Shown here: positions 4,925 through 33,974 of the stretch, piece after piece
Position numbering within the stretch: position 1 is the stretch's first letter
How the letters are laid out: every line of letters starts with the position of its first letter
Assembly: GCA_964394855.1 (NCBI GenBank)
Contig: CAYMZD010000004.1
Location: 8,316 to 72,315, forward strand
Source: an uncultured Gammaproteobacteria bacterium
GTDB taxonomy: Bacteria; Patescibacteriota; Microgenomatia; Daviesbacterales; UBA10151
Direction of reading: 5' to 3'
Length of the DNA stretch: 64,000 nucleotides
Translations under genes and position numbers: made by a program
Notes under the pieces: generated by a model
What the model saw: only the letters and a program-made list of their open reading frames with translations
Told to the model about the DNA's origin: nothing
The model's database searches: none

Positions 4925-4979
4925 TAGATATTATGACTATACTTTTAAAGTAAGATCTTGTCAAGGGGGTGATCAAAAT

Positions 4980-5165
4980 ATGTGCTTTAACTGTGGGTGT
5001 GGAATGACGGATGATGATATGGGTAATCCGGATAACATTACCAATAAAACCATTGAAAAAGCTGCCAAAGCCTCCGGCCAAAGCAAAAAGCAAACCTTAA
5101 AAAATATTATTGAGTCTGCCCAAAAAGAGCTGCAAAAAGTGATTAAACAGGCAGGGAAAAGCTAA
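4980..5165 (+). CDS. Small Cys-rich protein (MCFNCGCG...), K-rich helical tail
   Basis: SD AAGGGGGTGA lies 8 nt upstream of the ATG, the same SD string as at 2178. It is convergent with the histidine kinase. Confidence 0.35.
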   Translation: MCFNCGCGMTDDDMGNPDNITNKTIEKAAKASGQSKKQTLKNIIESAQKELQKVIKQAGKS

Positions 5166-6312
5166 AAGTTGAACCTTTGCCAAGCTCGGACTCAACCCAA
5201 ATTTTGCCATGGTGCATCTCCACCAGGGATTTAGTGATATAAAGGCCTAAACCCGTACCTTTGGTGCCGCCTTCCAAAGATCCTGAAACTCGGAAAAATT
5301 TACTAAAAAGTTCAGGTACGGCTTCTGGGGGAATGCCATGGCCGGTGTCTTGAACATGAGTGATCACATCCATCCCTTTTACTTCCACCCCCACCTTAAT
5401 CTTTCCTCCGGGTTCAGTATATTTGATGGCATTAGACAGCAAGTTGGCCAAAACTTCATTGATCCTGACTTTATCAACTTTCAGCCTGGGAATGGTTTGT
5501 GAAGGGGTGTCAAATATGAGTTCCACCCCTTTTTGCTTAGCTTGATCTTCAAAAAGCTTGATAGCTTCATTTACCAGCATTGGCCAATCCACAGCTTCCA
5601 AAGTAACATTTAAAACTCCTCTTTCGATGCGGGAGACTGAAAGCAAATTTTCCACCAATGTATTAAGTTGTTCGGTAGCAGCATTAGCATTTTGCAAAAG
5701 TTGTGTCTGATCAGCCGTTAAGCGATCTTTATTTTCTTCCAAGAAAACTGATAAATAACCCTTCATGGAGGTGAGGGGAGTGCGAAGTTCGTGGGCAGCC
5801 ATGGAGACAAAGTCAAACTTCATCCGTTCCAGCTTGACCTCTTGACTAACATCATGTAAGGTGAGGATACAACTTAAACTTTCGCCTACTGGTAGTTGAC
5901 TGGATATTAAATCAACTTGGGCTTCTTTCTTACCCACAATTTTTAAATCTTCTTTGGTAAAAATTACTCCTGCAAAACCTGGTCTGATTGGGCAATAGTT
6001 TAAAAATGTCAATTCAGTTTCTTTATCATAGAGTTTGATTATTTGATCAAATGGTTTCCCCCAAGCCTCAAGGGAGCCGAAGCCAGTGATGTTTTCCGCA
6101 GCTTTATTAAAAAGTGTGATGGTACGGTCTGCCCGAACCACAATGATGCCATCGGTGGTACCAGATAGGGCAACTAATAAATTGCTTTGCTGTGTGAGTA
6201 TTTGTTGCTTTTCCTGTTCGCTTTTTTGCCAAGATAAGCGCAGACTATCCAGCTCGGTATCCAGATCACTGTTTCGGGAAGAAAATAAATTTTTTAACCA
6301 CTGGGGCAGCAT
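5143..6312 (-). CDS. PAS-domain sensor histidine kinase (cytoplasmic, orphan)
   Basis: H-box HELRTPLTSMKGY; HATPase_c N/G1/G2 boxes (NLLSNAIKYT, DTGHGIP, GTGLGL); no adjacent response regulator. Confidence 0.85.
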   Translation of the reverse strand: MLPQWLKNLFSSRNSDLDTELDSLRLSWQKSEQEKQQILTQQSNLLVALSGTTDGIIVVRADRTITLFNKAAENITGFGSLEAWGKPFDQIIKLYDKETELTFLNYCPIRPGFAGVIFTKEDLKIVGKKEAQVDLISSQLPVGESLSCILTLHDVSQEVKLERMKFDFVSMAAHELRTPLTSMKGYLSVFLEENKDRLTADQTQLLQNANAATEQLNTLVENLLSVSRIERGVLNVTLEAVDWPMLVNEAIKLFEDQAKQKGVELIFDTPSQTIPRLKVDKVRINEVLANLLSNAIKYTEPGGKIKVGVEVKGMDVITHVQDTGHGIPPEAVPELFSKFFRVSGSLEGGTKGTGLGLYITKSLVEMHHGKIWVESELGKGSTFSFSLPV

Positions 6313-6333
6313 AAGTTCATTCTAACATGAACT

Positions 6334-7038: not shown

Positions 7039-7073
7039 GATTTTATTCCATTATAAATGTTACAATAAGTTTT

Positions 7074-7727
7074 GTGAAGATTCGGCTGTCCTTATTTTTT
7101 TTATCTTTTTTTGTCTTTTTTGTCTTTACTTTATTTTCCTATTCTGTGGCCAAAGAAGCTTGGCAACAAATTGATTTTGACTCAACAGTTAAAATTCAGG
7201 ATAAAATTCCAAGATATTGGGACGGCTACTTTTCTTATTTTTCTTTTATAGGCAGTGCAGAAGTAACCATAGGAATAGCTTTAATATTAGCTATATTAAG
7301 TATAATCAGATTAAAATTTTGGTCTTTTGTGGGCTGGCTTTTGATTTTTCCCGCTTCTTTTTTTGAAGTATTTGGCAAGTTGGTAGTTTTCCATCCGGGG
7401 CCGCCCGTGTTATTTCACAGAAACATCCTGGAAACAACGCTACCCAGTTTTTATATTCATACTAATTTTTCCTACCCTTCAGGCCATATGACCAGAACTG
7501 TTTTTTTAATCACCGTATTATTGATATTGGCCTTGACTTGGAGGAGCCTTTTCATCAAGTGGGTGGTAATTTTGGCCTTAGTCTTTTTAGGCCTGATGAT
7601 GACTTTAACCAGAGTTTATTTGGGAGAACACTGGTTATCTGATGTTTTGGGGGGAGGACTTTTGGGGTTGACGGCTGGTCTTTTTGCCTCGGGACTCATC
7701 CTTGCAAAGAAAAAAAGTTTGAGGTAA
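7074..7727 (+). CDS. PAP2-family membrane phosphatase
   Basis: Motifs YPSGH and RVYLGEHWLSDVLGG. Confidence 0.7.
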   Translation: MKIRLSLFFLSFFVFFVFTLFSYSVAKEAWQQIDFDSTVKIQDKIPRYWDGYFSYFSFIGSAEVTIGIALILAILSIIRLKFWSFVGWLLIFPASFFEVFGKLVVFHPGPPVLFHRNILETTLPSFYIHTNFSYPSGHMTRTVFLITVLLILALTWRSLFIKWVVILALVFLGLMMTLTRVYLGEHWLSDVLGGGLLGLTAGLFASGLILAKKKSLR

Positions 7728-8011: not shown

Positions 8012-8941
8012 ATGAGAAAGTCTGGGGTTGAAAAATTAATTATTGTTGGTTCTGGGCCGGCTGGGCTAACAGCAGCTATTTATGCAGCCAGAGGGAATTT
8101 AAATCCAGTGGTTATTACTGGAAGGGAAGCTGGCGGGCAATTAATGTTAACTACAGATGTGGATGATTTTCCCGGATTTGAAAGTGGCATCCAGGGACCG
8201 GAATTGATGGCTAAAATGCGCAAACAAGCTAAAAGGTTTAGCGTCAGATTTATAGATGAAGATGTTGTATCTGTAAATTTAAAAACTCAGCCTTTTGTGA
8301 TTAAAACTGAAAGCATGATTCTTAATTCTAACAGCTTGATTCTCGCTACAGGGGCTTCAGCTATGTGGTTGGGACTTTCTTCAGAGAAGCGCCTAATCGG
8401 TCATGGAGTATCAGCCTGTGCTATCTGTGATGCTCCTTTTTTCCAAGATAAAAAGGTAATTGTGGTGGGAGGAGGGGATACCGCTATGAGGGAAGCCAAT
8501 CACTTATCCAAGTTTTGTCAGTCAGTGGCTGTTGTTCATCGCCGCGGGGAACTGCGGGCCCAAGCTGCGCTGCAGCAGTTAGTTAAATCCAAAAAGAATG
8601 TAAATTTTATCTGGAATACGGTTGTGGAAGAAGTGTTGGGACAGGAAAAAGTGACAGGAGTGAGGTTAAAAAATACTCAAGATGGGAGGATGGAAGAATT
8701 AGCAGTTGATGGAGTGTTTGTGGCCATTGGACATCGGCCCAACACCGACTTTTTAAAAGGGCAACTGCCATTGGATGAAAAAGGATATGTGGTGGTAGAA
8801 AACGAAACCCATACTAAAGTGCCTGGTGTCTTTGTGGCCGGGGATGTGGCAGATTATCATTACCGCCAAGCAGCCACAGCCGCTGGCATGGGTTGTAAAG
8901 CATCCTTTGACGTTGAAGAATATTTGGAAAATTTAAAATAG
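8012..8941 (+). CDS. trxB: Thioredoxin-disulfide reductase
   Basis: FAD site GSGPAGLTAA, redox centre CAIC, NADPH site GGGDTA. Confidence 0.9.
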   Translation: MRKSGVEKLIIVGSGPAGLTAAIYAARGNLNPVVITGREAGGQLMLTTDVDDFPGFESGIQGPELMAKMRKQAKRFSVRFIDEDVVSVNLKTQPFVIKTESMILNSNSLILATGASAMWLGLSSEKRLIGHGVSACAICDAPFFQDKKVIVVGGGDTAMREANHLSKFCQSVAVVHRRGELRAQAALQQLVKSKKNVNFIWNTVVEEVLGQEKVTGVRLKNTQDGRMEELAVDGVFVAIGHRPNTDFLKGQLPLDEKGYVVVENETHTKVPGVFVAGDVADYHYRQAATAAGMGCKASFDVEEYLENLK

Positions 8942-8958
8942 ATGATATAATTGGCTCT

Positions 8959-9405
8959 ATGAAGTCATTATTATCTCAATTCATCAAATTGCTTCCCTCA
9001 AAACCAGTTTTTGCCCATTGTGATATTCCCTGCGGGATTTATGATCCCAAGCCGGCCCAGCTGGCTGCTCAAACAGTTTTAAAAATGGTTAATTTGATGA
9101 GTGAACTGCAACCCACCACTAGTGAACCGCCGTTTGAGGAAAGAAAGAAGATCATTTCTCAAATTTCCAGATTAACCAGAGTCAAGGAAGATCATGCTGA
9201 AGCGTGCAAAAGAGAAGTGTTAATTTTGTGGACAGATTATTTTAAAAGTGAGCATTTGGAAAAATTCCCGGATTTACATGATTTGATTTGGAAAACCTGT
9301 AAACTTTGTTCTGATAATAAAAGAGCCGTGGATGAGGCTAAAGCCCAAGAATTAGTTGAGGCTGTAGATAAAATAGCAGAGGTTTTTAATCAAACTAAAA
9401 AGTGA
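8959..9405 (+). CDS. sodN: Nickel superoxide dismutase precursor
   Basis: An 18-aa propeptide is followed by the Ni-hook HCDIPCGIYDP; TGATATAAT box 7 nt upstream of the ATG. Confidence 0.85.
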   Translation: MKSLLSQFIKLLPSKPVFAHCDIPCGIYDPKPAQLAAQTVLKMVNLMSELQPTTSEPPFEERKKIISQISRLTRVKEDHAEACKREVLILWTDYFKSEHLEKFPDLHDLIWKTCKLCSDNKRAVDEAKAQELVEAVDKIAEVFNQTKK

Positions 9406-9698: not shown

Positions 9699-9740
9699 AC
9701 TTAAGTTGTGGTGGAGAGTAATTTCTTCTATACTGATGTT

Positions 9741-10058
9741 ATGGAAACTGCTGCCCAACAGGATAGACAAACAGCCCAAGTAATTGCCAGAAACTTAAAT
9801 AAATTGGGTGTAGGAGTCAGCGCAGAAGATATCACTCCCCAGACCGCTGCCACAGCGATACCCAGAACTAAAGAACTGGAGGAGGCTGGAGCAGAGATTT
9901 CCGGAGAAGATATCACCCACTTGGTGGGTGAAACAGTGGGGGAGATGACTACAGGAGCCAGTAAAGTAAGGGTGGCCCGCTCAAGCAGTTTTTGGGCTAA
10001 ACTTAAAGAAAGAGTTTTAAGAAAGAAAAAACCGGACGAGGAAGTTCTCATTAAATAA
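9741..10058 (+). CDS. Hypothetical protein
   Basis: ORF 9708-10058 with an internal ATG at 9741; the opposite-strand ORF is low complexity. Confidence 0.4.
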   Translation: METAAQQDRQTAQVIARNLNKLGVGVSAEDITPQTAATAIPRTKELEEAGAEISGEDITHLVGETVGEMTTGASKVRVARSSSFWAKLKERVLRKKKPDEEVLIK

Positions 10059-10062: not shown

Positions 10063-12408
10063 ATGGAGGTTACACCATCAAACGGGCCAGACATTATTGG
10101 TTTTGCCATCACTGCAGCCATGATTTTGATTTCTGTTATGGTTATTTTGGGGCTGATGGTGTATTTTTGGCGTTTTTTTGTGGGATGGGTAAAATTTAGA
10201 GAAAGAGAGAAAACATCTTTACAATTTGTGCTTTTGCAGATTATTGTTCCCCATGACAATGAAGTCAAAATTGATGCAGCAGAGCAACTTTTTGCCACCT
10301 TCGCCTCTATTAGAAAATCAACTGGTAAGCTTTTTGGTCGTTTCAAAATACAACCCCATTTATCTTTTGAGATTGTTGCTTTACATGAGTCAATTCGTTT
10401 CTATATTTCTTGCCATAGACAATATCAAGATTTAATAGAAAAGCAGATTCATGGAGCCTATCCTGATGCTGAAGTTAAAGAGTTACCAGAATATAATATT
10501 TTTTCAGAAGAGGGTAAAACAGCTTATGCCTCTTTGAGGCTTCGTAGTCAGGATTTTTTCCCCATAAAAACTTTTAGGGATTTACCAACAGATCCACTTT
10601 CTAGCATTACTTCTGCCTTGGCTAAAATGCAGCCAGGAGAGGGTGCAGCCATACAGATGATTATTTTTCCCAGCGATAACAACTGGAAAGAGATTGGTAA
10701 AAAGTGGCTGAAAAAAGAAAAAGACCCAGGAAAACCAGATAACCCCAAACCTCCCCCTGATGCCAAGCAGATTGAAGCGGTAGAAGGGAAAATGACCAGA
10801 CCTGGTTTTTATACCACTATCAGGATTGTGGTTTCTTCCACTTCCAGCGAATCTGCCAAAGCCCATCTGGCCAATATTCGCTCAGGCTTTGAACAGTTTA
10901 ATGGTCCATATAACGGTTTTAGTGGTGAAAAAGTCAAAAGCGAAAAGAGCTTTATGACTGATTTTATCTACCGTTATCAGCCCAGATTTAGCCAAGCTGC
11001 GGTTTTAACGCCAGATGAGCTGGCTTCTGTTTTCCATTTCCCCAACAAGCAGATTGAAACGCCCTATATCTCCTGGTTAACTTCTAAACGAGCTCCTGCC
11101 CCAGAAAAAATTCCCACAGAAGGACTTTATCTTGGACGCTCTCTTTTTCGCAGCATTGTCCGCCAGGTATATGTGGCAGAGGATGATAGAAGACGTCACA
11201 TGTATATCATTGGTCGAACCGGTATTGGTAAGTCAGAGCTTTTAAAAAGCTTGATGTTGCAAGATATTTTGGCAGGTAAAGGACTATGTTTTATTGACCC
11301 ACACGGTGATGCAGCAGAGGAATTATTAGAACTGATTCCTCCACAGCGAGCAGAAGATGTGATCTATTTTGACCCAGGAGATTTAGAAAGACCCATGGGG
11401 TTAAATATGATTGAAGCCTATACTGAAGAGCAAAAGCATTTTGTGGTAGCTTCCATTATTGGTTTAATGTATAAACTTTTTGATCCCAATAAAACTGGTA
11501 TTATCGGTCCTCGTTTTGAGCATGGTGTTCGGAATGCCATGTTAACAGCCATGAGTAAACCCGGTGCCACCTTTGTGGAGGTGATGAGAATCATGACTGA
11601 TTCCAGCTTTGTGCAAGAGATATTGCCCTTGGTAGTTGATCCAGTGGTACGCCGCTATTGGACAGATCAGATTGCCCAAACTACTGACTTTCACAAGTCT
11701 GAAGTTTTGGATTATACTGTTTCCAAATTTGGTCGTTTTGTCACCAATAAAATGATGAGAAATATTATTGGACAATCGCAAAGTTCATTTGATCTTAGAA
11801 AAGTGATGGATGAAGGAAAAATCTTAATCATGAATTTATCTAAGGGAAAAATTGGTGAGGAAAATTCCAACTTTTTAGGGCTGATCCTGGTACCTAAAAT
11901 TTTGGCTGCTGCCATGTCCCGCTCTGATATACCCATGGAGCAGCGGAGAGATTTTTATCTTTATGTGGATGAGTTTCAAAACTTTGCCACGGAAACTTTT
12001 GGCGATATCCTTTCCGAAGCTCGAAAATATCGTTTAAATTTAATTGTGGCTAATCAGTTTATTGGTCAAATTGGAGAGGAATTAAAAAATGCTGTTTTTG
12101 GTAATGTGGGAACCTTAATTGCCTTTAGGGTGGGAGTCACTGATGCTAACTATTTGCAGCATGAGTTTTCACCTACTTTTTCGGAAAACGATTTGGTTAA
12201 TGTAGAAGCTTATCATGCCTATATCAAGACCATTGTTCATGGAGAGCCAGTTTCACCATTTTCTTTGGATACCACTAAAGATATGACCAAATGGAAAAGT
12301 TTGCTAAACCCCCAAATTGCTCAAGCTGTCAAGGAGCTATCTCGTCTTAAATATGGTCGGGATGCGCAAACTATTGAAGCTGACATTGCCCAGCGGGCCA
12401 GATTGTAA
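10063..12408 (+). CDS. Membrane-anchored P-loop NTPase of the type IV secretion / conjugal coupling type (TraG/VirD4/VirB4-like)
   Basis: N-terminal TM helix; Walker A IIGRTGIGKSELL; Walker B-like LYVDEFQNFAT; size 781 aa. Confidence 0.55.
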   Translation: MEVTPSNGPDIIGFAITAAMILISVMVILGLMVYFWRFFVGWVKFREREKTSLQFVLLQIIVPHDNEVKIDAAEQLFATFASIRKSTGKLFGRFKIQPHLSFEIVALHESIRFYISCHRQYQDLIEKQIHGAYPDAEVKELPEYNIFSEEGKTAYASLRLRSQDFFPIKTFRDLPTDPLSSITSALAKMQPGEGAAIQMIIFPSDNNWKEIGKKWLKKEKDPGKPDNPKPPPDAKQIEAVEGKMTRPGFYTTIRIVVSSTSSESAKAHLANIRSGFEQFNGPYNGFSGEKVKSEKSFMTDFIYRYQPRFSQAAVLTPDELASVFHFPNKQIETPYISWLTSKRAPAPEKIPTEGLYLGRSLFRSIVRQVYVAEDDRRRHMYIIGRTGIGKSELLKSLMLQDILAGKGLCFIDPHGDAAEELLELIPPQRAEDVIYFDPGDLERPMGLNMIEAYTEEQKHFVVASIIGLMYKLFDPNKTGIIGPRFEHGVRNAMLTAMSKPGATFVEVMRIMTDSSFVQEILPLVVDPVVRRYWTDQIAQTTDFHKSEVLDYTVSKFGRFVTNKMMRNIIGQSQSSFDLRKVMDEGKILIMNLSKGKIGEENSNFLGLILVPKILAAAMSRSDIPMEQRRDFYLYVDEFQNFATETFGDILSEARKYRLNLIVANQFIGQIGEELKNAVFGNVGTLIAFRVGVTDANYLQHEFSPTFSENDLVNVEAYHAYIKTIVHGEPVSPFSLDTTKDMTKWKSLLNPQIAQAVKELSRLKYGRDAQTIEADIAQRARL

Positions 12409-12422
12409 TATAATTCACTCGC

Positions 12423-12493
12423 AGGCCCGTAGCTTAGTGGTAAAGCGGGTGTCTTATACACACTTGATGAGGGTTCGATTCCTTCCGGGCCTA
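12423..12493 (+). tRNA. tRNA with anticodon UAU (Ile, AUA-reading)
   Basis: A manual cloverleaf gives acceptor AGGCCCG/CGGGCCT, D-stem GCTT/AAGC, anticodon stem GGTGT/ACACT, loop CTTATAC, T-arm GAGGG-TTCGATT-CCTTC and A73. CCA is not encoded. Confidence 0.55.
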
Positions 12494-12578
12494 CCCTTCA
12501 ACAAGCTCAGGGTAAACTGAAAGGGGGTGATGAGTTCTGAATAAGCAAATAGGAAAAGTAGTACACTATTATGATAAA

Positions 12579-12785: not shown

Positions 12786-13645
12786 AGTTCTTCCAGTTGG
12801 ACCTTGGGCCCATTGGTTTGGCCTTGAATAAATTGTAAGTATTTTTCCGTGGTGGTTAATCTTTTATGTCCAGCCAGCTTGGCCACAGTCACTAAAGACA
12901 TGCCACTTTCTAGCTGGGTTGTTACCCAAGTATGACGCAAGTCATTAACTTTAGCTTGCTTGATGCCAGCAACTTTAAAATATCTATCAATGGCAGTTCT
13001 AATATTTCTGATAAGTAAGGGTTTGCCTGTTTTAGTGATAAACAGAGTATGAGAGGGTGATTTGGGCCTTATTCCTAAATATTTTTGTACAGCCTCGGCG
13101 CCAGGTTTAGTCAGAGGAATAGTTCGCTCCACAGTGCCTTCCGCTGTTGGTACATGTAAGTTTAAATTTTGTAAATCGATATCCTCTACTCGTAAGGCTG
13201 CCAACTCGCCAATTCTCACTCCTGTTTGCAAAAGGAGCTCAATAACGGCAAAAATTCGAATATCTCCTCTGGCAGCATCTCGCAGGGCCCTATATTCTAG
13301 TTTAGATAAAATACGAGGGGGTTTGTTTTCAAACTTGGGATGCTCCAAGGCTGTGGCTGGATCTTCAGTGATAAAATTAGATATTTTTAAGAATTTAAAA
13401 AAAGTTTTGGTGGAGTTGGTTTTTCTGGAAATTGATTTGGCAGTGTAGTTTTCTTTGGTCAGACTTTCCATAAAGGCTTGTAAATCTTCCAAAAGCACAT
13501 CAAAGGTCTGTTCTCGTCCCAGCTTTTTTAAGAAGTTAACCAGTTGCTCAATATCCTTGCCATAAGCTAAAATAGTAGCATTGGCACGGTTTTTGCCTTT
13601 GAGGTGGCCAATAAATTGTTGATGGGCATCTGTTAAGTTAATCAT
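12782..13645 (-). CDS. Tyrosine recombinase, XerC/XerD-like
   Basis: Catalytic region RHTWVTTQLESGMSLVTVAKLAGHKRLTTTEKYLQF carries the R-H-R-Y residues. Confidence 0.85.
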   Translation of the reverse strand: MINLTDAHQQFIGHLKGKNRANATILAYGKDIEQLVNFLKKLGREQTFDVLLEDLQAFMESLTKENYTAKSISRKTNSTKTFFKFLKISNFITEDPATALEHPKFENKPPRILSKLEYRALRDAARGDIRIFAVIELLLQTGVRIGELAALRVEDIDLQNLNLHVPTAEGTVERTIPLTKPGAEAVQKYLGIRPKSPSHTLFITKTGKPLLIRNIRTAIDRYFKVAGIKQAKVNDLRHTWVTTQLESGMSLVTVAKLAGHKRLTTTEKYLQFIQGQTNGPKVQLEEL

Positions 13646-13700
13646 GATATCTAGCTGATATTGTAAACTTATAGGGTGCTTTTGTCAAGAGAGTTTTAAA

Positions 13701-15361: not shown

Positions 15362-15441
15362 ATATTTAAAAGAACACTTGTATTTTAAACTTTTACCCTT
15401 AATATGTCAATGTAAGTAGGATATGTTAAAATTGACCGTAA

Positions 15442-15512
15442 GGCAGTGTAGTTTAACGGTAAAACAGTGCCCTCATAAAGCACGAACGGAGGTCCGACTC
15501 CTCCCATTGCCA
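15442..15512 (+). tRNA. tRNA(CAU), elongator Met or lysidine-type Ile2
   Basis: Acceptor GGCAGTG/CATTGCC with G1-C72, loop CTCATAA, T-loop TCCGACT (C at position 55, unusual). Confidence 0.55.
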
Positions 15513-16742: not shown

Positions 16743-18134
16743 ATGGAAACAATAGAAAACAAAATTACAATTAGTACAGAGAATTTAGATGATCAAGAAG
16801 CAGATAAGAGGATAACTGCTATTAGAGGAGTGGTGCATCAATCTGGCTTAGTAACAGACTCTAGACACGATTTTAGACTGACTCCGGATAGATTAGTTTT
16901 AAATTCAGAAGCAAGAAACCAATTTGAACAGATTGGAGAGTTAATATTGTCAAGTTTTTCTGCAACCAGAAGAGTGTTTCTGAGGGCTAAAAGAAGTGAA
17001 TTTCCTGAAGATTTAAACAGATTTGTGATCAGAGCTCTTGAAGCAGGAATGAGTAATGCTAATAAAAAGACCTTATCAGTAGAGATTGACCAATTGCCGC
17101 TTTTTTTCAGGGCTGATTGTATCCTGGCACAAGATGGTGGGGAATTAGCGATTAAGGCTACTGAAATAGAAGGCGAAAGATCCATTGCTTTTGGCTTTGC
17201 CAGCTTCATAGATCAAATCAATACGGCAGTAAATCAAGTGAGTATAGACCAACGATTGGGGGGTTTAGGAGTTGCAAGTGGAATAAAACAAGCGGTTGAA
17301 GAAAGTAACTTCCAAGGTAAGGGAATAGCTTTAATATTAGCGGAAGACCAGCTATTCTATTTACCTGAACAGGCGCTATTTGTTAATGAACTTAGAAGTC
17401 TAGGGATACCTGTAGAGTTAGTTAGAGAGAATGATTTTGAAATGAAACCTGGCAATCCTCCCATGGTGATTTTGCCTAGTGGAGAAGCAGCTAATGTGGC
17501 TGTAAGCCTCCCAAAGTTTAATCCTCAAAAATCAGGTCAACAATTTAGCCAAGAAAGATTAAGGATGGATTTTATTAGGGGGGCTTTTGATTTCCTTTTG
17601 CCTCCGTTCAAATTCTTTGGTACAAAATCTTCTATGGCTTTAATGCACCAGCCAATAATTCGAGACATTTTCTTTGAAGAGGGAATGAATGCAAAATTGG
17701 TAGATAAATTGATTCCGCCAACGAAAGCAATAGCCGGTCAGATTTCAGAAGTAGAACGATTACTTTTAGAAATGGGCATTCAAACAGACCCCCCAACCCT
17801 GCTTAAAGCCGTAGGTATGACTGCTGGAAGAGGCATGGCTATGCCAAATGATAGAGAAGGTATCCGAGAAATTTTGCGGATTGCCAAAGGATCGCCATTT
17901 GATTTTATAACACAACAATTTTTGGAAACAGTTGCACCGGAATTTAGAATTTTTGATTCGCAGAGTGGTGAGTTACGCAAAGAATTTCAGTTTATGAGGT
18001 TGGCAGCATTTTTTGCTAATATTAACGGGTGTTCAACTTTGCTTGGAGTGGAGGGGACTGGTTTACCCAATCCATTTGTCCACGGAAACCCTAATTGTAT
18101 TTTCTTTCCAGTAGTATTTAAGGAGGAAGTATGA
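16743..18134 (+). CDS. Hypothetical protein with an ATP-grasp-like signature in circularly permuted order
   Basis: The RADCILAQDGGELAIKATEIEGERS block resembles the ATP-grasp C-terminal R-D...G...E-N motif but sits N-terminally; there are no other recognisable motifs. Confidence 0.35.
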   Translation: METIENKITISTENLDDQEADKRITAIRGVVHQSGLVTDSRHDFRLTPDRLVLNSEARNQFEQIGELILSSFSATRRVFLRAKRSEFPEDLNRFVIRALEAGMSNANKKTLSVEIDQLPLFFRADCILAQDGGELAIKATEIEGERSIAFGFASFIDQINTAVNQVSIDQRLGGLGVASGIKQAVEESNFQGKGIALILAEDQLFYLPEQALFVNELRSLGIPVELVRENDFEMKPGNPPMVILPSGEAANVAVSLPKFNPQKSGQQFSQERLRMDFIRGAFDFLLPPFKFFGTKSSMALMHQPIIRDIFFEEGMNAKLVDKLIPPTKAIAGQISEVERLLLEMGIQTDPPTLLKAVGMTAGRGMAMPNDREGIREILRIAKGSPFDFITQQFLETVAPEFRIFDSQSGELRKEFQFMRLAAFFANINGCSTLLGVEGTGLPNPFVHGNPNCIFFPVVFKEEV

Positions 18135-18998: not shown

Positions 18999-19990
18999 AA
19001 AGAATTTTAACTGGGGATAGGCCCACCTCTGATAGTTTTCATTTGGGAAACTATGTGGGGTCCTTGAAAAATAGGGTCAAGCTGCAGGATGAGTACGAGA
19101 CCTTTATTGAGGTAGTAGATCTTCATGCCTTAACAACTCATTTTGATAAAACTGCTGATTTGGAAAAAAATATCCGTGGTTTGATGCTCGGGTATTTGTC
19201 TGTGGGGTTGGATCCTAAAAAGGTTACATTTATTCTGCAGTCCAAAGTACCTGAAGTTTTGGAACTGGCATATTTTCTGGGAACTTTGACCTCCAGAGCA
19301 GTCTTGGAGCGCCAGCCGGCTTTAAAAGAAAAACTTGATCAGGGAGAACAAGATACCTTTGCTTTGTTTCAATATCCGGTTTTAATGGCGGCTGATATTC
19401 TGCTTCCTAAAGCCAATCTAGTGCCTGTAGGTAAAGACCAAAAAGCTCATGTGGAATATGCCAGAGACATTGCCATGAAATTTAATAGCACATATGGTGA
19501 AGTTTTTCCTATACCAGAACCATTGATAGGGGAAGTACCCACTCTTCCAGGTACAGACGGCAGGGGGAAAATGAGCAAATCCTTAAATAATGCCATTTTT
19601 TTGACTGACTCTCCTGAAGAAGTAGAAAAAAAGGTCATGAATATGTATACCGATCCCAAAAGAATCCACCCTAACGATCCGGGAACAGTTGAAGGAAATC
19701 CGGTCTTTGTTTATCTGGATGCATTTGGCACAGAAGGTGATAAAGCTCAAATTGCCAAATTCAGAGAGCTTTACACAAAGGGCCAAGTGGGAGATATTGA
19801 GGTCAAAAAGTATCTGGTATCCGTTTTAAATAATTTTCTGGATCCCATCCGCCAGAGGAGAGAAAAGTACGAGAAAGACCCCGAGCTTGTCGAACGGATT
19901 TTGCGTGAAGGCACTGCCAAAGCCCGTCTTGAGGCCCAAAAAACTCTACAAGAAGTTAAATCTGCCATGAAACTCGATTACTTCCCATAA
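18995..19990 (+). CDS. trpS: Tryptophan--tRNA ligase
   Basis: Class I motifs FHLGNYVG (HIGH-like) and KMSKS. Confidence 0.9.
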   Translation: MKRILTGDRPTSDSFHLGNYVGSLKNRVKLQDEYETFIEVVDLHALTTHFDKTADLEKNIRGLMLGYLSVGLDPKKVTFILQSKVPEVLELAYFLGTLTSRAVLERQPALKEKLDQGEQDTFALFQYPVLMAADILLPKANLVPVGKDQKAHVEYARDIAMKFNSTYGEVFPIPEPLIGEVPTLPGTDGRGKMSKSLNNAIFLTDSPEEVEKKVMNMYTDPKRIHPNDPGTVEGNPVFVYLDAFGTEGDKAQIAKFRELYTKGQVGDIEVKKYLVSVLNNFLDPIRQRREKYEKDPELVERILREGTAKARLEAQKTLQEVKSAMKLDYFP

Positions 19991-20017
19991 TCCTTATTCT
20001 CTGGTATAATTTCCATC

Positions 20018-21859
20018 ATGGCCAATGGAAAAAAGAAATTAAATCACAAACGTTTGTGGTCTATTACCAAAGGGGTGGCTATTTATGTTTTAATAGCCCT
20101 GGCTTCTTTAATCTTCTTTTATTCATTTGCAGGTCCACCTCAACCCCAAAACCAAGTGCCAATCTCCCAAATAATTCAGGATATTAAAGATAAAAAGATA
20201 GACAAGATCATCCTGGAGGGGGATAAAATTCAGGCCAAATTAAAAGATGCTGATGAGAAGATAGTTTCCCGGAAAGAAGAAGGGGAATCAATTTATAAAA
20301 TTCTGGAAAGTTCTGGAGTTGATCCCAAGGAAGTGACCATTGAGGTCAAAGATATTTCCATGCAGCAAGCTTGGGTAAATATCTTAGGAGCTTTTTTACC
20401 AGTGATTTTAATGGTGGTACTTTTTTTCTTCATTTTCCGCCAAGCCAGAGAAGGAGCCCAGGGCATTTTTTCCTTTGCCCAGAGCCGTGCCAAGCTTTTT
20501 ACTAAAGATGCCCCTCAAATTAAATTTGGCGATGTGGCAGGAGCAGAGGAGGCCAAAAAAGAGCTTTCAGAAGTGGTAGATTTTCTAAAAAGTCCGCAAA
20601 AATATAAAGACATCGGGGCCAGAATTCCCAAGGGAGTACTTTTAGTTGGTCCTCCGGGTACAGGTAAAACCCTCTTGTCAAGAGCGGTGGCCGGCGAGGC
20701 CAATGTACCATTTTTCTCCATTGCCGGTTCAGAATTTATGGAAATGCTAGTGGGAGTGGGAGCAGCCAGAGTTCGCGATATGTTTTCCCAAGCCAAAAAA
20801 AGCGCTCCGGCCATTATTTTCATTGACGAGATTGAATCAATCGGCAGGATGCGTGGTTTTGGCATTTCCGGCGGGCATGATGAAAGAGAACAGACCTTAA
20901 ATCAAATCTTGGTGGAGATGGATGGTTTCGCTCCCAATGATCATGTGATTGTCGTCGGTGCCACTAATCGCCCTGATTTATTGGATCCGGCCCTAATTCG
21001 ACCAGGCAGATTTGATAGACGGGTGATTTTAAATATGCCTGATATAGAAGAGCGAAAGGCCATTATTGAATTGCACATGAAGGGTAAACCATTTACTAGG
21101 GAAGTTGATGTTGAAAGATTGGCCAGGCGAACTGTGGGTTTTTCCGGAGCGGATTTGGCCAATATGTTAAATGAGGCTGCCATTTTGGCTGCGCGCGAGG
21201 CTAAAAAAGCGATAGACCCCAGAGATCTGGAAGAGGCGGCCACCAAAGTTAAACTGGGGCCGCAGCGAAAAAGAATGCAAACGGAAAATGATAGGAAGCT
21301 TTCCGCCTATCATGAGGCTGGTCATGCCATAGTGGGACATCACTTACCTTTAGTTGATCCGGTCCATCGCATTTCCATAGTATCGCGCGGCATGACCGGG
21401 GGACACACCATGTTTCCCCCCACTGAAGATCGCTCTAATGAGACAAAATCGCGCCTCACACAGCAAATTACCACTGCCTTGGGAGGAAGAGCAGCAGAAG
21501 AGATGGTTTTTAGTGATATTTCAACCGGAGCGGCCAGTGATATTGAGATAGCCACCGGTATTGCCAGGGAAATGGTGGCGGAATATGGCATGTCCAGTTT
21601 AGGACCAATTAATATCAAACCTCGTTCTATGTTTGGTCTTTGGCCTACCATGGGGGAAGAAGGTGGCGGGGTTTCCCAGACCATGCAAACAAAAATTGAT
21701 ATGGAAGTTAAAAAAATTATTGACTCTTGTTACAAACAAGCTCAAGAGATTTTGCATAAAAATAAGGCCAAACTTGATAAAGTGGCCAAGGCCCTTTTGG
21801 GAAAAGAAACTTTAGATACGGATGAATTTGAAAAACTTATTGGGAAGAAGAAAACTTGA
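20018..21859 (+). CDS. ftsH: ATP-dependent zinc metalloprotease FtsH
   Basis: N-terminal TM region, Walker A GPPGTGKT, SRH region, zinc motif HEAGHA. TGGTATAAT box 7 nt upstream of the ATG. Confidence 0.95.
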   Translation: MANGKKKLNHKRLWSITKGVAIYVLIALASLIFFYSFAGPPQPQNQVPISQIIQDIKDKKIDKIILEGDKIQAKLKDADEKIVSRKEEGESIYKILESSGVDPKEVTIEVKDISMQQAWVNILGAFLPVILMVVLFFFIFRQAREGAQGIFSFAQSRAKLFTKDAPQIKFGDVAGAEEAKKELSEVVDFLKSPQKYKDIGARIPKGVLLVGPPGTGKTLLSRAVAGEANVPFFSIAGSEFMEMLVGVGAARVRDMFSQAKKSAPAIIFIDEIESIGRMRGFGISGGHDEREQTLNQILVEMDGFAPNDHVIVVGATNRPDLLDPALIRPGRFDRRVILNMPDIEERKAIIELHMKGKPFTREVDVERLARRTVGFSGADLANMLNEAAILAAREAKKAIDPRDLEEAATKVKLGPQRKRMQTENDRKLSAYHEAGHAIVGHHLPLVDPVHRISIVSRGMTGGHTMFPPTEDRSNETKSRLTQQITTALGGRAAEEMVFSDISTGAASDIEIATGIAREMVAEYGMSSLGPINIKPRSMFGLWPTMGEEGGGVSQTMQTKIDMEVKKIIDSCYKQAQEILHKNKAKLDKVAKALLGKETLDTDEFEKLIGKKKT

Positions 21860-21893
21860 CTTTTGAGAAGATCTAGCAGTAAGATAATCTTGC

Positions 21894-22664
21894 ATGCGCG
21901 TAACTTGGATTTTGGCAATTTTAGCTCTCTCTGCAATCTTTCTTTCAGGCTGTAATACTGTTTTTGCCGCGTCAAACGCCCAAGAAGATTTAACCTCTGG
22001 TTTAACCCTGGATGAAGCTGGGGCAGTGGAAATTGGTGAATCTTTAATTTATCCATCTTCACCTTTGTATTTTCTAAAAGGTATCAGAGAGCGGATTGAA
22101 CTAATGTTAAGTAGTAATAATAAAGCTAAGGCTCAAAGAGAGTTGGAGTTTGCTCAAAGGCGCCTTCGGGAAGTAAGAGCTTTAATCAAACACCAAAGGC
22201 AGGATTTAATTGACTCCACCCTAGAACGTTATAAAGCTTCATTAAACGAGGCCAGAAGTTTATCTGCCCCAGATTCTAGTCTGCAACTGCCAGTGGGGGA
22301 GGCTATTTCGCGGCATTTGGATGTGTTGCAAAGAGTCCATGACCAAGTGGGAAACCCCAGAGCTAAACAGGCCATCAGAGCAGCGCTAGAAAGGGGAATG
22401 GAGCATTTGCAAACCATGCAAAAGCGTTTGGATTTAGTGCAGCAACAAGAACTAATTCGCAAAACAGCTTTGCGCCAAGCTCTAGCTTGTAATTTGCTAG
22501 CTAGGGAAGCTTCCAATTCTGGATTAACTGATACAGACAGAGTTTATCTGACACAAAAAGTCAAAGATTGCCAGCAAAATATCAGAGAAAATCTAAAAGA
22601 TGAGCTGATGGAACTGCGGGATATGAAAAAACAACTCCGCCCTGCCACACAATCTGCCAAATAA
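21894..22664 (+). CDS. Secreted coiled-coil hypothetical protein
   Basis: Signal peptide with a lipobox-like LSGC; Q/R/L-rich helices. Confidence 0.45.
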   Translation: MRVTWILAILALSAIFLSGCNTVFAASNAQEDLTSGLTLDEAGAVEIGESLIYPSSPLYFLKGIRERIELMLSSNNKAKAQRELEFAQRRLREVRALIKHQRQDLIDSTLERYKASLNEARSLSAPDSSLQLPVGEAISRHLDVLQRVHDQVGNPRAKQAIRAALERGMEHLQTMQKRLDLVQQQELIRKTALRQALACNLLAREASNSGLTDTDRVYLTQKVKDCQQNIRENLKDELMELRDMKKQLRPATQSAK

Positions 22665-22688
22665 TCCCAAATCTGTTACAATTTGGGT

Positions 22689-24815
22689 GTGAAACTATTA
22701 GTTTTGATTGATGGTAATGCCCTGCTCTATCGTGCCTACCATGCCCTTCCTCCCATGACTACTAGAAAAGGCGAACTGGTTAATGGGGTTTATGGCTTTA
22801 CCTCGATGATTTTAAAAGCTTCCCAGGATTTGCGGCCGGATTATTGGGCCATTGCCTGGGATGAAAAAGGACCCACTTTCCGCCACCAAGCTTACAGTCA
22901 ATATAAAGCCACCAGAGCAGCAGTTGATCAGGCCTTAGATTTGCAATATAAAAGGGTTCACCAAGTTGTCCAGGCCTTTAATATTCCCGAGTTTTCTCTC
23001 AAAGGCTTCGAGGCAGATGATTTAATAGGAACTTTGGTAAAACAAGTCCCCCGATTAGATTCGTCCCGATTGAATCGGGATCGGGGTCTAGAAACAGTTG
23101 TAATAACAGGAGACAGGGATATCATGCAAATTATTGATAAAAATACCAAAGTGTTAATGCCGCGAAAAACCATTAATGATGTGGGGTTATACGGGGAAGA
23201 AGAATTTGTTGCGAGATTTGGCTTTAAACCTAAATATTTGATTGATTTTAAAGCTCTGGCAGGGGATGCATCTGATAATATTCCTGGAGTTGCTGGAGTG
23301 GGAGAGAAAACAGCCACGGACTTGATATTGAAATTTGGTCCTATCGAGAATATCTACAAACTAAAGAATTTAAAAACTTTGCCGGAGAGGATGCAAAAGC
23401 TTCTGGCAGAAGGAGCAGAAGATGCAGTGATGAGCAAAAAATTAGCCACCTTGGACCAAGATGCACCAACTAAGCTGGATTTGGCAAAATGTCAGGTTCA
23501 CGATTTTGATAAAAATGAGGTTGTTAAATTATTTGAGGAGCTGGAATTTAAGAGTTTATTTGCTAGGTTGTCTGGCCAGGCTTCAGTCAGTACCCCTGCT
23601 ACAGACTTAGACTTAGAAGTTGAACCCATTTTACAGAAAATGAGCAAAGCCGGAGTTTTAATTGACCTTAAATTTTTAAACAAGATGGGAAAAAAGTTAA
23701 AAGACAGACTTGTTAAACTTGAACAAGAAATTTACTCATATATAGGTCATCAGATTAATCTAAATAGCCCCAAACAACTACAAATTGTGCTTTTTGATGA
23801 ACTGAAACTGCCTGTTTTTAAAAAAACCAAAACCGGTCGATCAACTGATGAGGAAACCTTGCATGAACTTATCAGTGCTCATCCAGTGGTTCCCTTGCTT
23901 TTAGAATATCGACAACTTTTTAAACTGATTTCCACTTATATCGATGCTCTACCTAAATCCGTGGGTAGTGATGGCCGAGTGCATTCCACTTTTAATGTGG
24001 AAGGTGCAGCCACCGGCAGAATCAGCTCACAAGATCCTAATTTACAAAATATTCCTGTTCGGGGAGAATTAGGTGGTGAAGTGAGAAAAGCCTTTGTGGC
24101 TCCCAAAGGCAAAGTTTTACTGGCAGCAGATTATTCCCAAATTGAGCTGCGGATTATGGCCCATTTGGCTGATGATCCGGGTTTGAGAAAAGCTTTTGAA
24201 GAAGGTTTGGATATCCATGCTGCTACTGCAGCCAAGATTTTTAATGTAGCGGTTGAAAAGGTGACCAAAGAGCAAAGAGGGGTGGGTAAAACCATGAACT
24301 TTGCCACTTTGTACGGCCAGGGTCCGCATGCTTTGTCCCGCCAATTAAAAGTGCCTTTTGAAATAGCCAGATCATATATTGAGGAATATTTTGCCCAGTT
24401 TCCCAAAATTCAGGAATGGATGCAGAAAACTTTGGAGGCAGGGTTGCAACATGGATATGTTGAGACTTTAATGGGGAGAATTAGATATATTCCCGAGCTG
24501 AAAGCGGAAAATAGAATGATTCGCTCGGCTGGGGAACGGGCAGCTGTAAATATGCCTGTGCAGGGAAGTGCAGCTGATATGATTAAAAAAGCCATGGTGG
24601 AAATTGATAAGGAACTAGGTTCCTGCACCATGATTCTCCAGGTTCATGATGAGTTGTTATTTGAATGTGATGGTTCGGCAGGCTCACCACAAGTCCGAAA
24701 ACTGGCCTTGATGGTCAAGGACAAAATGGAAAAGGCTTTAAAGTTATCCGTACCAGTGGTGGTGGATCTGAAAGTCGGTCCCAACTGGGGAGAAATGGAA
24801 CAGCTTAAAGCATAA
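22689..24815 (+). CDS. polA: DNA polymerase I, compact form (5'-3' exonuclease domain plus polymerase domain, no proofreading domain evident)
   Basis: N-terminal LVLIDGNALLYRAYHA; motif A DYSQIELRIMAHL; motif C QVHDEL. Probable GTG start 6 nt after a TACAAT box. Confidence 0.9.
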   Translation: MKLLVLIDGNALLYRAYHALPPMTTRKGELVNGVYGFTSMILKASQDLRPDYWAIAWDEKGPTFRHQAYSQYKATRAAVDQALDLQYKRVHQVVQAFNIPEFSLKGFEADDLIGTLVKQVPRLDSSRLNRDRGLETVVITGDRDIMQIIDKNTKVLMPRKTINDVGLYGEEEFVARFGFKPKYLIDFKALAGDASDNIPGVAGVGEKTATDLILKFGPIENIYKLKNLKTLPERMQKLLAEGAEDAVMSKKLATLDQDAPTKLDLAKCQVHDFDKNEVVKLFEELEFKSLFARLSGQASVSTPATDLDLEVEPILQKMSKAGVLIDLKFLNKMGKKLKDRLVKLEQEIYSYIGHQINLNSPKQLQIVLFDELKLPVFKKTKTGRSTDEETLHELISAHPVVPLLLEYRQLFKLISTYIDALPKSVGSDGRVHSTFNVEGAATGRISSQDPNLQNIPVRGELGGEVRKAFVAPKGKVLLAADYSQIELRIMAHLADDPGLRKAFEEGLDIHAATAAKIFNVAVEKVTKEQRGVGKTMNFATLYGQGPHALSRQLKVPFEIARSYIEEYFAQFPKIQEWMQKTLEAGLQHGYVETLMGRIRYIPELKAENRMIRSAGERAAVNMPVQGSAADMIKKAMVEIDKELGSCTMILQVHDELLFECDGSAGSPQVRKLALMVKDKMEKALKLSVPVVVDLKVGPNWGEMEQLKA

Positions 24816-24923
24816 ATTTTTTATGAAAAGTTTTATGGGAAGAAAAATTTAATGGTAAGATAGCAGTGGTTGGTATTTTTTATATGAGGTTATTCGCCAA
24901 AAAGAGGGGTATATAATTAAATT

Positions 24924-25577
24924 ATGATAATTAAAAAATATCCTCAATCACATTTGATTATTACAGGAAATTCCACCAAACTTATTATTGACCCTGGTTC
25001 AATTACTTTTAGTGGTGGTTTTAAACCGGAGGAGTTCCAGGGAGCAGATGCTTATTTATTTACCCACACCCACCAGGACCATTTGGATACTAACACTGTT
25101 AAACAGGTGGTGGGAGAAAAGCCATGTTTTGGAAATGCTGATGTGGTTAGAGTATTTCGTGAGTTGGGATTAAATGCTACCCAGATCCATGATAGGGATA
25201 AATTTTCAGTAGGTGGGTTTGAGATAACTCCTGTTGATTTACCCCATTGCAAGATGCAGGATGGCACGGATGGTCCACCCAATACCGGTTTTTTAATTAA
25301 CCCCGATTTAATCGGGGTAAACGGAGTTTTGTTCCATCCGGGAGATGGAGACGAAGCTCCGGCCGGTTTGACTTCACAAAATGTGGCTTTGCCTATTGCC
25401 GGACCCACCATTACTATGGAGGGAGCATTGCAGTTTGCCAAGGATTTACAGGCCAAAGTGGTTGTGCCCATTCATTATGACTTTTTTAAGGCTGATCCTA
25501 ATGAATTTAAAAATATGGCAGCGCCTTTTGGCATTGAAGTTCGCCCCCTGGCTCCTGGTGAAGAAACAGAAATTTAG
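24924..25577 (+). CDS. MBL-fold metallo-hydrolase
   Basis: Motif HTHQDHLD. Confidence 0.8.
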   Translation: MIIKKYPQSHLIITGNSTKLIIDPGSITFSGGFKPEEFQGADAYLFTHTHQDHLDTNTVKQVVGEKPCFGNADVVRVFRELGLNATQIHDRDKFSVGGFEITPVDLPHCKMQDGTDGPPNTGFLINPDLIGVNGVLFHPGDGDEAPAGLTSQNVALPIAGPTITMEGALQFAKDLQAKVVVPIHYDFFKADPNEFKNMAAPFGIEVRPLAPGEETEI

Positions 25578-26044: not shown

Positions 26045-26051
26045 GCCTTAA

Positions 26052-26079
26052 ATTATACTTAAAATTCTGTTAAAATCAA
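26052..26079 (-). promoter_or_regulatory. Sigma70-like promoter for the nrdR-like gene (TTGATT-N16-TATAAT, minus strand)
   Basis: Consensus-like -35 and -10 boxes; the predicted TSS coincides with the first codon of the NrdR frame, implying a leaderless transcript. Confidence 0.45.
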
Positions 26080-26082
26080 GTC

Positions 26083-28075: not shown

Positions 28076-28085
28076 TTGATATAAT
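28037..28085 (+). repeat. Direct repeat copy 1 (fpg 3' end, ending in TTGATATAAT)
   Basis: A 32-bp core is identical to 29198-29229, and the similarity extends to ~49 bp. Confidence 0.8.
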
Positions 28086-28093
28086 AAGCTTGT

Positions 28094-28552: not shown

Positions 28553-28617
28553 TAACATTACGCGGGACTTGACAAAGTCTAAGAAAAATAGTAGGATAAT
28601 CTTAGGAAAATCTAATT

Positions 28618-29153: not shown

Positions 29154-29180
29154 AGGTAAATTAAAAAGATTTCCCTGGTT

Positions 29181-29229: not shown

Positions 29230-29236
29230 TTAGAAA

Positions 29237-33966: not shown

Positions 33967-33974
33967 TCACCCCA

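Follow-up and report, generated by a model that had tools for sequence, protein, structure and literature searches.

Translation of leaderless messenger RNAs (mRNAs) is known from Actinobacteria, Deinococcus and archaea. Such mRNAs need a 5′-terminal AUG or GUG, and RNA polymerase prefers a pyrimidine at position -1 and a purine at +1. Bacteria of the candidate phyla radiation (CPR, Patescibacteria) are mostly uncultured, and to our knowledge almost nothing has been written on the transcription and translation of their genes. We report here on a 64,000-nucleotide (nt) stretch of CPR DNA, hereafter the window, in which -10 promoter boxes recur a few nucleotides before start codons. In the described systems, the Pribnow box of leaderless genes in Mycobacterium tuberculosis lies 6–8 nt from the start, and this actinobacterial type of organisation (group C in the GeneMarkS-2 classification) accounts for about 25–50% of transcription units (PMC6028130). 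Across 49 bacteria, the distance from the -10 element to the transcription start site (TSS) is centred on 7 bp (PMC12641261).

The window belongs to a metagenome-assembled genome (MAG) of Candidatus Daviesbacteria, an ultra-small groundwater bacterium of the Microgenomates group within the CPR. Among species-representative genomes, the relatives of its FtsH protein are almost all from Candidatus Daviesbacteria, followed by Curtiss-, Levy- and Gottesmanbacteria, and its sodN protein (8959-9405) is matched exactly on contig JACQIZ010000003.1 of assembly GCA_016198205.1. The GC content is about 0.40. The evidence below makes it quite probable that about one gene in three (some 24 good cases in the window) gives rise to promoter-abutted, leaderless mRNAs, and that the same is true across the Microgenomates.

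Boxes next to start codons

The gene set of the window comprises 70 usable genes, delimited by a simple codon-score caller that always takes the first start codon (ATG, GTG or TTG); the comparison set comprises 1231 genes called in related Microgenomates loci. Three backgrounds were used for the window count: 1000 dinucleotide-preserving shuffles, other distances within the same upstream regions, and shadow open reading frames (ORFs). A TAnnnT hexamer ends 6–8 nt before the first start codon at 24 of the 70 genes, as compared to 7.3 ± 2.6 in the shuffles (maximum 16 in 1000), 7.6 expected from the other distances, and 7.5% of shadow ORFs (Fisher test, 5e-7). For the stricter TAnAAT the figures are 13 of 70 genes against 1.05 expected. 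The recurrent -10 box, often TGnTATAAT, which the initial annotation had described at this distance is thus borne out by the counts, and it is commoner than expected for AT-rich DNA by each of the three measures.

The same signal is found in the related loci. There, TAnAAT peaks at exactly 6 nt (7.8% of genes), with 4.0, 3.1 and 3.4% at 7, 8 and 9 nt, respectively, about 0.4% farther upstream and 0.2% at shadow ORFs. The 6-nt peak reaches 14.9% in Davies-like and 12.6% in Levy/Gottesman-like genomes, and is weak in the small Curtiss-like sample. Metagenome contigs carrying a CPR-type sodN have a box at 28% of their genes, versus 7.6% at other distances, and no strong Shine-Dalgarno (SD) sequence. 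The architecture is therefore characteristic of the lineage (Davies-, Levy- and Gottesmanbacteria-like genomes and, more weakly, Curtissbacteria-like ones) and not of this window alone. The same counting gave 2 of 42 genes in Escherichia coli, against a background of 2.1, and 4 of 41 genes on a Deinococcus megaplasmid, against a background of 0.9, with a modest peak at 6–9 nt.

That such figures arose by chance in an AT-rich genome, or as an artefact of the stop codon TAA inside TATAAT lying near the first start of an ORF, appears exceedingly improbable. The GC content is indeed only about 0.40, and at a distance of 8 nt the TAA of the hexamer is in frame with the start. Nevertheless, the observed count is matched neither by shuffles, nor by other distances, nor by shadow ORFs, which share the stop-codon bias, and the peak is highest at 6 and 7 nt, distances at which the TAA is not in frame.

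For individual sites, a good box was defined by at least 5 of 6 matches, or 4 of 6 plus TG or a full -35 element, at 5–9 nt from an ATG or GTG; a relaxed definition (nAnnnT with at least 4 of 6 matches) labels too many genes and was not used for counts. About 24 window genes have a good box, including sodN, ftsH, polA, and the ligase, GGDEF, GT4, hydrolase, SpoU and polyprenyl synthase genes. The sites are given below, together with two short-leader contrasts (hexamer positions in brackets; a number between two hexamers is the spacer in nt; distances run from hexamer to start codon; aa, amino acids).

6310-6327, minus strand: histidine-kinase gene, TGtTAGAAT (6319-6324), 6 nt, ATG 6312
7058-7076, plus strand: PAP2 gene, TGtTACAAT (7061-7066), 7 nt, GTG 7074
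8924-8961, plus strand: sodN (Pfam Sod_Ni), -35 TTGGAA (8924-8929), 16-nt spacer, TGaTATAAT (8943-8951, hexamer 8946-8951), tggctct (8952-8958), ATG 8959-8961
9729-9743, plus strand: small gene, TATACT, 6 nt, ATG 9741; same start in the public annotation
13643-13688, minus strand: short-leader contrast, integrase/XerC-like gene, TTGACA-17-TACAAT (13660-13665), 14 nt, ATG 13645; orthologues mostly at 10–15 nt
19982-20020, plus strand: ftsH, TTCCCA-17-TGgTATAAT (20005-20010), 7 nt, ATG 20018
21856-21896, plus strand: DUF5667 gene, TTGACT-18-TAAGAT (21880-21885), 8 nt, ATG 21894
22654-22691, plus strand: polA, CTGCCA-17-TGtTACAAT (22677-22682), 6 nt, GTG 22689
24912-24926, plus strand: MBL-fold hydrolase gene, TATAAT, 6 nt, ATG 24924; in-frame stop one codon upstream
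26068-26085, plus strand: GT4 glycosyltransferase gene, TGtTAAAAT (26071-26076), 6 nt, ATG 26083
28077-28096, plus strand: uncharacterised 152-aa gene, TGaTATAAT (28080-28085), 8 nt, ATG 28094; box in repeat copy 1
29221-29239, plus strand: alpha/beta hydrolase gene, TGaTATAAT (29224-29229), 7 nt, ATG 29237; box in repeat copy 2
33959-33977, plus strand: 232-aa gene, TGcAATAAT (33962-33967), 7 nt, ATG 33975
36369-36384, minus strand: GGDEF gene, divergent, TATACT (36379-36384), 7 nt, ATG 36371
36381-36396, plus strand: ATP-dependent DNA ligase gene, TATAAT (36381-36386), 7 nt, ATG 36394; same 570-aa product in the public annotation
38618-38632, plus strand: 427-aa gene, TAAAAT, 6 nt, ATG 38630
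41083-41123, plus strand: DsbA/thioredoxin-like gene, TTGACA-18-TATTGT (41107-41112), 8 nt, ATG 41121
43121-43145, minus strand: short-leader contrast, TGtTATAAT (43137-43142), 13 nt, ATG 43123
46264-46301, minus strand: PA14-domain gene, TTGACA-17-TACGAT (46273-46278), 6 nt, ATG 46266 (start called in this analysis)
47765-47803, minus strand: 185-aa gene, TTGACA-18-GATAAT (47774-47779), 6 nt, ATG 47767; in-frame stop one codon upstream
54854-54872, minus strand: polyprenyl synthase gene, TGaTATAAT (54864-54869), 7 nt, ATG 54856; same start in the public annotation
56080-56096, minus strand: TPR gene, TATAAT (56091-56096), 8 nt, ATG 56082
56170-56188, plus strand: SpoU methylase gene, TGgTAGAAT (56173-56178), 7 nt, ATG 56186; same start in the public annotation
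59280-59299, minus strand: 298-aa gene, TGcTATCAT (59291-59296), 8 nt, ATG 59282
60124-60163, plus strand: 178-aa gene, TTGCAA-17-TAAAAT (60147-60152), 8 nt, ATG 60161

The sodN box lies inside the 17-nt gap that follows the stop codon of the upstream Pyr_redox_2 gene (8939-8941), with its -35 element within the 3′ end of that gene. At a few window genes (7038, 13645, 43123), the box is found 11–14 nt from the start. Most examples put forward in the initial annotation agree with these sites: box and distance are as described for sodN, ftsH, polA, and the MBL-fold hydrolase and GT4 genes; the TGaTATAAT boxes of the two repeat copies end at 28085 and 29229, 8 and 7 nt before ATG 28094 and ATG 29237; and the 47767 gene has TTGACA-18-GATAAT at 6 nt. 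For the ligase gene, the TATAAT (36381-36386) stands, but the start proposed at 36384, about 10 nt away, has to be replaced by ATG 36394 at 7 nt.

Distances of this kind depend on correct start codons. Pfam profiles begin within 1–12 residues of the proposed N-termini, and several proposed starts have in-frame stops 1–3 codons upstream. Re-examination of the first-start calls placed five genes on an ATG with a box 6–7 nt upstream (36394, 36371, 54856, 56186 and 46266), and the public annotation of the contig agrees for four of the five (ligase, GGDEF, polyprenyl synthase and SpoU), as it does for sodN and 9741. We regard it as very unlikely that the start codons are generally miscalled, with true starts downstream (or upstream) and boxes that are ordinary promoters with ordinary leaders. 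The caller does take the first ATG, GTG or TTG of each ORF, several of its calls were indeed wrong (36358, 36407, 54865, 56165 and 46281), and spurious in-frame ATGs arise from TATAATG. The corrections, however, moved starts onto a box at 6–7 nt and not away from it, in agreement with the public annotation for the four genes named, and the Pfam domain boundaries fit the proposed starts. In addition, the sodN propeptide and the MANGK N-terminus of FtsH are conserved from the proposed ATG, and shadow ORFs given the same treatment show no peak.

When TATAAT is followed by G and the gap is 7 nt, a spurious in-frame ATG is created 9 nt upstream of the start, as at 54865 versus 54856. Start calling by longest ORF is thereby exposed to a systematic error in these genomes.

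An "nrdR-like" gene on the minus strand had also been proposed as a leaderless example. A TTGATT-N16-TATAAT box is indeed present, but 7 nt after it comes the codon ATA, and the ORF (25574-26047) contains no ATG, GTG or TTG for 54 codons beyond the box; the gene is neither leaderless nor demonstrably NrdR. Its 5′ stretch has a non-coding codon score (0.029, as compared to 0.189 ± 0.06). The protein matches no Pfam family at E ≤ 0.01, and no zinc ribbon or ATP-cone is recognised in it by profile; in a large protein search the sole hit was the protein itself (103 aa from GTG 25885), and tblastn against the 80 related loci found no orthologue. A leaderless AUA start and the NrdR label were consequently both dropped, given the lack of a Pfam match and of a homologue and a probably non-coding stretch between the box and GTG 25885. 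The hexamer of this orphan gene (25574-26057, minus strand) lies at 26052-26057, about 160 nt before the annotated GTG 25885, and would give a long, SD-less leader. The open frame between this box and GTG 25885 encodes a CxH…CxxC motif but scores as non-coding.

The two repeat copies mentioned above (28008-28085 and 29152-29229) form a 78-nt direct repeat of 85% identity, which duplicates the 3′ end of fpg (ending in GRGTYYCPKCQK and the stop codon) together with a TGATATAAT box. The second copy (29152-29229) is a non-coding relic with stop codons just upstream. Between the copies (genes 28094-29153) lie the uncharacterised 152-aa gene and a Phd/YefM-ParE toxin-antitoxin pair. The 28–29 kb region has the appearance of a roughly 1.1-kb insertion with duplication of its flank, where each copy of the repeat would supply a start-abutting promoter.

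Promoter elements and Shine-Dalgarno sequences

Alignment of 457 start-proximal hexamers reveals the extended -10 positions TGn (T 54%, G 45%) and a TTG beginning 23 nt upstream of the hexamer, i.e. a -35 element with a 17-nt spacer. TG precedes 36% of start-proximal boxes versus 7% of TAnnnT hexamers inside coding sequences (p = 2e-56), and a -35 match of at least 5 of 6 at 16–18 nt spacing accompanies 14% versus 1.8% (p = 5e-30). All hallmarks of sigma70 promoters are present (A2, T6, TGn, and -35 TTGACA at 17 ± 1 nt), with individual full-consensus sites at 13645, 46266, 47767, 41121 and tRNA-Met 15361, and a two-hexamer promoter scan of the window returned the sodN and ftsH sites among its best matches. 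The same consensus is found upstream of transfer RNA (tRNA) and ribosomal RNA (rRNA) genes; boxes precede four tRNA genes, including tRNA-Ile, tRNA-Met and tRNA-Cys.

12386-12423, plus strand: promoter-like site of tRNA-Ile(TAT), TTGCCC-17-TATAAT (12409-12414), 8 nt before the tRNA 5′ end
60699-60727, plus strand: promoter-like site upstream of 16S rRNA, TTGACA-17-TAAAAT, about 245 nt before the gene; same consensus at a non-translated gene

We conclude that the boxes are sigma70 -10 elements and not a translation signal. The opposite view, that the motif is a non-SD translation signal such as an A/U-rich ribosome or S1 site in the leader (GeneMarkS-2 group B, e.g. Bacteroidota) and no promoter, seems to us quite unlikely. 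It would account for the position of the motif at 6–8 nt, the distance of a ribosome-binding site, and for low SD use, since strong SDs occur at about 13.5% of genes versus a 5% baseline. Yet the co-occurring TGn and -35 TTGACA at 16–18 nt spacing would be meaningless to a ribosome, and the same motif precedes tRNA and rRNA genes. Group B genomes moreover carry their motif before internal operon genes as well, for which reason it cannot be a promoter there (PMC6028130); here, the motif is not found before all genes, and its frequency before operon-internal genes is that of the background.

This dependence on operon position is marked. A box precedes 12% of genes that overlap their upstream neighbour, equal to background, and an SD is found at 30% of them; for co-directional gaps of 16–80 nt the box is at 49% and the SD at about 10%, and for divergent gaps of 16–40 nt the box reaches 75%. 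An SD with a duplex energy of -8 kcal/mol or better precedes about 12 window genes, most of them operon-internal; the SD-led genes include those for a HAD hydrolase, a tRNA-editing-domain protein, a class I W/Y aminoacyl-tRNA synthetase, Fpg and Pth. The remaining window genes, mostly abutting, show neither SD nor box.

4963-4982, plus strand: very strong SD AAGGGGGTGA, 7 nt, ATG 4980 (61-aa ORF); same 10-mer also at 2160 (ATG 2175) and 7745 (TTG 7761)
18120-18133, plus strand: HAD hydrolase gene, SD AAGGAGG (18120-18126), ATG 18131, 4-nt overlap with the upstream gene; SD-led, operon-internal
62453-62457, plus strand: canonical anti-SD CCTCC at the 16S 3′ end (GGATCACCTCCTTTCT), as read from the sequence

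The two genes that follow 18131, at 18555 (tRNA_edit) and 18995 (tRNA-synt_1b), are likewise SD-led. The initial annotation had also pointed to small ORFs with very strong SDs, and rightly so: AAGGGGGTGA occurs four times in the window, always on the plus strand (2160, 4963, 7745 and 12521), against 0.19 expected, and three copies lie 5–7 nt before unrelated small ORFs of 61–77 aa. The fourth (12521) follows tRNA-Ile(TAT), and no ORF of more than 25 aa starts within about 30 nt downstream of it.

The suggestion made there that leaderless and SD-led genes differ by gene class does not hold. The split follows operon position, i.e. overlapping or internal genes versus genes with a gap of their own, and housekeeping genes are found on both sides. 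A correlation with gene class was accordingly rejected: ftsH, polA and the ligase gene look leaderless, and the TrpRS/TyrRS-class synthetase, Pth and Fpg genes are SD-led.

Several further observations concern these regions. The -10 boxes of tRNA-Ile(TAT), tRNA-Met and tRNA-Cys are separated from the mature 5′ ends by only 8, 9 and 11 nt (12409-12423, 15424-15442 and 62712-62729, respectively), and the precursor leaders of these tRNAs would therefore be only a few nucleotides long. The tRNA-Ile at 12423-12495 has the anticodon TAT (ARAGORN); in most bacteria, AUA is the codon of a tRNA whose CAT anticodon is lysidine-modified. Between 48000 and 56000 lies a block of low GC content (0.31–0.32 versus about 0.40) with glycosyltransferase and polyprenyl-synthase genes; several of these are overlapping genes whose starts are preceded by no SD and no -10 box.

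The proposed leaderless route

We propose that ordinary housekeeping sigma70-type promoters, with a -10 hexamer ending 6–8 nt before the start codon, would initiate transcription on, or within 1–2 nt of, the A or G of that codon. The resulting mRNA would have no 5′ untranslated region and no SD, and the ribosome would initiate on its 5′-terminal AUG or GUG by the leaderless pathway. The box is missing from genes overlapping or abutting the preceding gene, which have either a GGAGG-type SD or no detectable signal, the latter presumably relying on coupling. With a gap of 6 nt, initiation 7 bp beyond the -10 element (PMC12641261) would place +1 on the A of the ATG.

Start codon choice and flanking bases are consistent with this scheme. 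Genes of the box class start with ATG in 89%, GTG in 9% and TTG in 2% of cases, as compared to 13–19% TTG in the other classes, and among the 6-nt cases, 74% have a pyrimidine at -1. The sequence-level features that characterise group C genomes are all found: a -10 motif above background 6–8 nt from the starts, AUG or GUG start codons, and SDs at operon-internal genes, where the -10 motif falls to background. The box class includes genes only 15–35 nt from a co-directional neighbour, where the short gap puts the -35 region within that neighbour.

The geometry is also conserved among orthologues. In 70 related loci, polA (syntenic with ftsH) has a box, usually TGnTAnAAT, at 5–9 nt in 46 cases and at exactly 6 nt in 35, and an SD in only 2; the orthologues with a box share 36–77% protein identity, and the spacer sequence is not conserved. 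At ftsH, TGnTAnAAT is found at 6–8 nt in most Daviesbacteria with the conserved MANGK N-terminus, with an SD or a long leader in a few. CPR-type sodN orthologues, with a propeptide of about 18–20 residues, carry TTGACA-17-TAnnnT at 6–9 nt. In distant sodN orthologues (MKLSFIKPVFAHCD), the start is preceded by a GGAGG leader, and a TATACT lies about 20 nt upstream of that. As judged from these upstream regions, sodN thus appears with two architectures, a start-abutting box or a GGAGG leader, in different lineages.

A number of points weigh against a leaderless interpretation. We infer both the position of the TSS and the leaderless translation from the geometry of the sites. Transcripts from boxes at 7–9 nt may carry a leader of 1–3 nt rather than none, and at Levybacteria-like ftsH loci the box is 10–12 nt from the start, which implies short leaders. 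Terminator-like hairpins are not enriched (21 versus 20.6 expected) and intergenic gaps are too short for terminators, so that the same genes are probably also present on read-through polycistronic RNAs. One of the earlier examples, the nrdR-like gene, fails, and the PA14 protein as read from ATG 46266 has no matching product in the public collection. The control samples are small (about 40 genes each), and the percentages are approximate because the simple codon-score caller takes the first start codon.

An alternative is that the promoters are real but secondary or internal, or leave leaders of 1–6 nt, so that most protein is made from polycistronic RNAs by SD-independent internal initiation or coupling and the leaderless route is minor. 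We consider this unlikely. In its favour are the gaps of 15–35 nt, without room for terminators, the lack of hairpin enrichment, and the spread of box distances to 7–9 nt, and to 10–14 nt in some relatives. Many abutting genes also have neither SD nor box, and some SD-less internal initiation or coupling must therefore exist here. On the other hand, the peak is sharpest at exactly 6 nt and is kept there in 35 of the 70 polA orthologues, which an unconstrained RNA 5′ end would not need, and the near absence of TTG starts and the pyrimidine at -1 are expected only if the start codon is the TSS. We therefore favour leaderless mRNAs as the probable product of the start-abutting promoters.

In the rRNA region, the complete 16S rRNA gene (60973-62460) is followed by a hairpin with a T-run (about 62678-62707), tRNA-Cys, tRNA-Ile and pgk (region 60973-63890); no 23S gene is found within the window, which suggests that the rRNA genes are not linked. 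The final A of the CCA encoded in tRNA-Ile(GAT) is also the first base of the pgk ATG (62892; region 62818-62894), a start with neither SD nor -10 box. The 5′ end of the pgk mRNA might be generated by 3′ processing of the tRNA (a tRNA-punctuation-like, near-leaderless arrangement), or the site might be an SD-less internal translation start. A look-up of the pgk protein from ATG 62892 found no record. By coordinate arithmetic (window position equals contig position minus 221457), the public contig JACQIZ010000003.1, indexed at 283046 nt, would stop within the 16S gene at about 61589, which would leave the final 2.4 kb of the window past its end.

Significance and comparison with known systems

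A search of the literature available to us found no paper linking leaderless mRNAs with CPR, Patescibacteria, Microgenomates or Saccharibacteria beyond incidental mentions. A 2024 perspective on unexplored Patescibacteria biology does not contain the terms "promoter", "UTR", "Shine", "transcription start", "translation initiation" or "ribosome binding", and a study of CPR ribosomes treats the loss of the anti-SD in some Parcubacteria, not leaderless genes. The leaderless mechanism itself is textbook knowledge; the finding extends a known pattern to a lineage for which no description was found, and adds no new principle. The chances seem evenly balanced that the Microgenomates, perhaps with much of the CPR, constitute a third large lineage besides Actinobacteria and Deinococcus-Thermus in which the leaderless route is the main one for promoter-proximal genes. 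Nearly every non-overlapping gene would then have its own ATG-abutting promoter in a gap of 15–35 nt, divergent genes would share a symmetric -10 and give two leaderless mRNAs with start codons 17–25 nt apart, and SD use would be about 13% despite an intact anti-SD.

If true, the reduced ribosome of the CPR would be connected with a simplified and possibly ancestral mode of initiation, and the pairing of small ribosomes with leaderless initiation represents a testable evolutionary question. If a third or more of the genes are leaderless, start calling in the thousands of CPR MAGs should use promoter-aware models. As to genetic tools for the few cultivable CPR bacteria, expression constructs could fuse a TGnTATAAT box 6 nt from the ATG.

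Actinobacteria (Mycobacterium, Streptomyces, Corynebacterium; group C) provide the closest parallel, with a Pribnow box 6–8 nt before first genes, SDs at internal or leadered genes, and 5′ ATG or GTG (PMC6028130). The genome described here differs in being of low GC content (0.40) and very compact, with promoters in gaps of 15–35 nt and -35 elements in the upstream gene, in its frequent extended TGn (36%), and in its very low SD use despite a canonical anti-SD. The actinobacterial cases are backed by differential RNA sequencing, whereas those described here are predicted from sequence. In Deinococcus-Thermus (e.g. D. deserti), promoter -10 elements likewise lie directly upstream of starts genome-wide, in keeping with the megaplasmid peak at 6–9 nt. 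The signal in the window is stronger (34% of genes, versus 10–15% in the small Deinococcus sample) and belongs to an unrelated lineage; the Deinococcus cases have experimental support. Archaea (group D) share mRNAs that begin at the start codon and SDs at internal operon genes, but use a TATA box with its BRE element about 26 nt upstream instead of a sigma70 -10 at 6–8 nt.

The sequence layout of divergent genes, finally, recalls a further known system. Between the starts of the ligase gene (ATG 36394) and the GGDEF gene (ATG 36371, minus strand) there are 22 nt, with overlapping -10 boxes (AGTATAAT, 36379-36386). Of 9 divergent pairs with gaps of 16–25 nt in related loci, 7 have a box on both sides, often with a palindromic core such as AGTATACT. 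Bidirectional promoters arising from -10 symmetry in E. coli and Salmonella, according to the account of Warman et al. 2021 given in PMC10268837, have overlapping -10 elements on opposite strands and start sites 7–25 bp apart. In sequence, the pair 36371(-)/36394(+) and the 7 of 9 related pairs fit this geometry. They differ from the enterobacterial promoters in that both products would be leaderless coding mRNAs, with start codons 17–25 nt apart.

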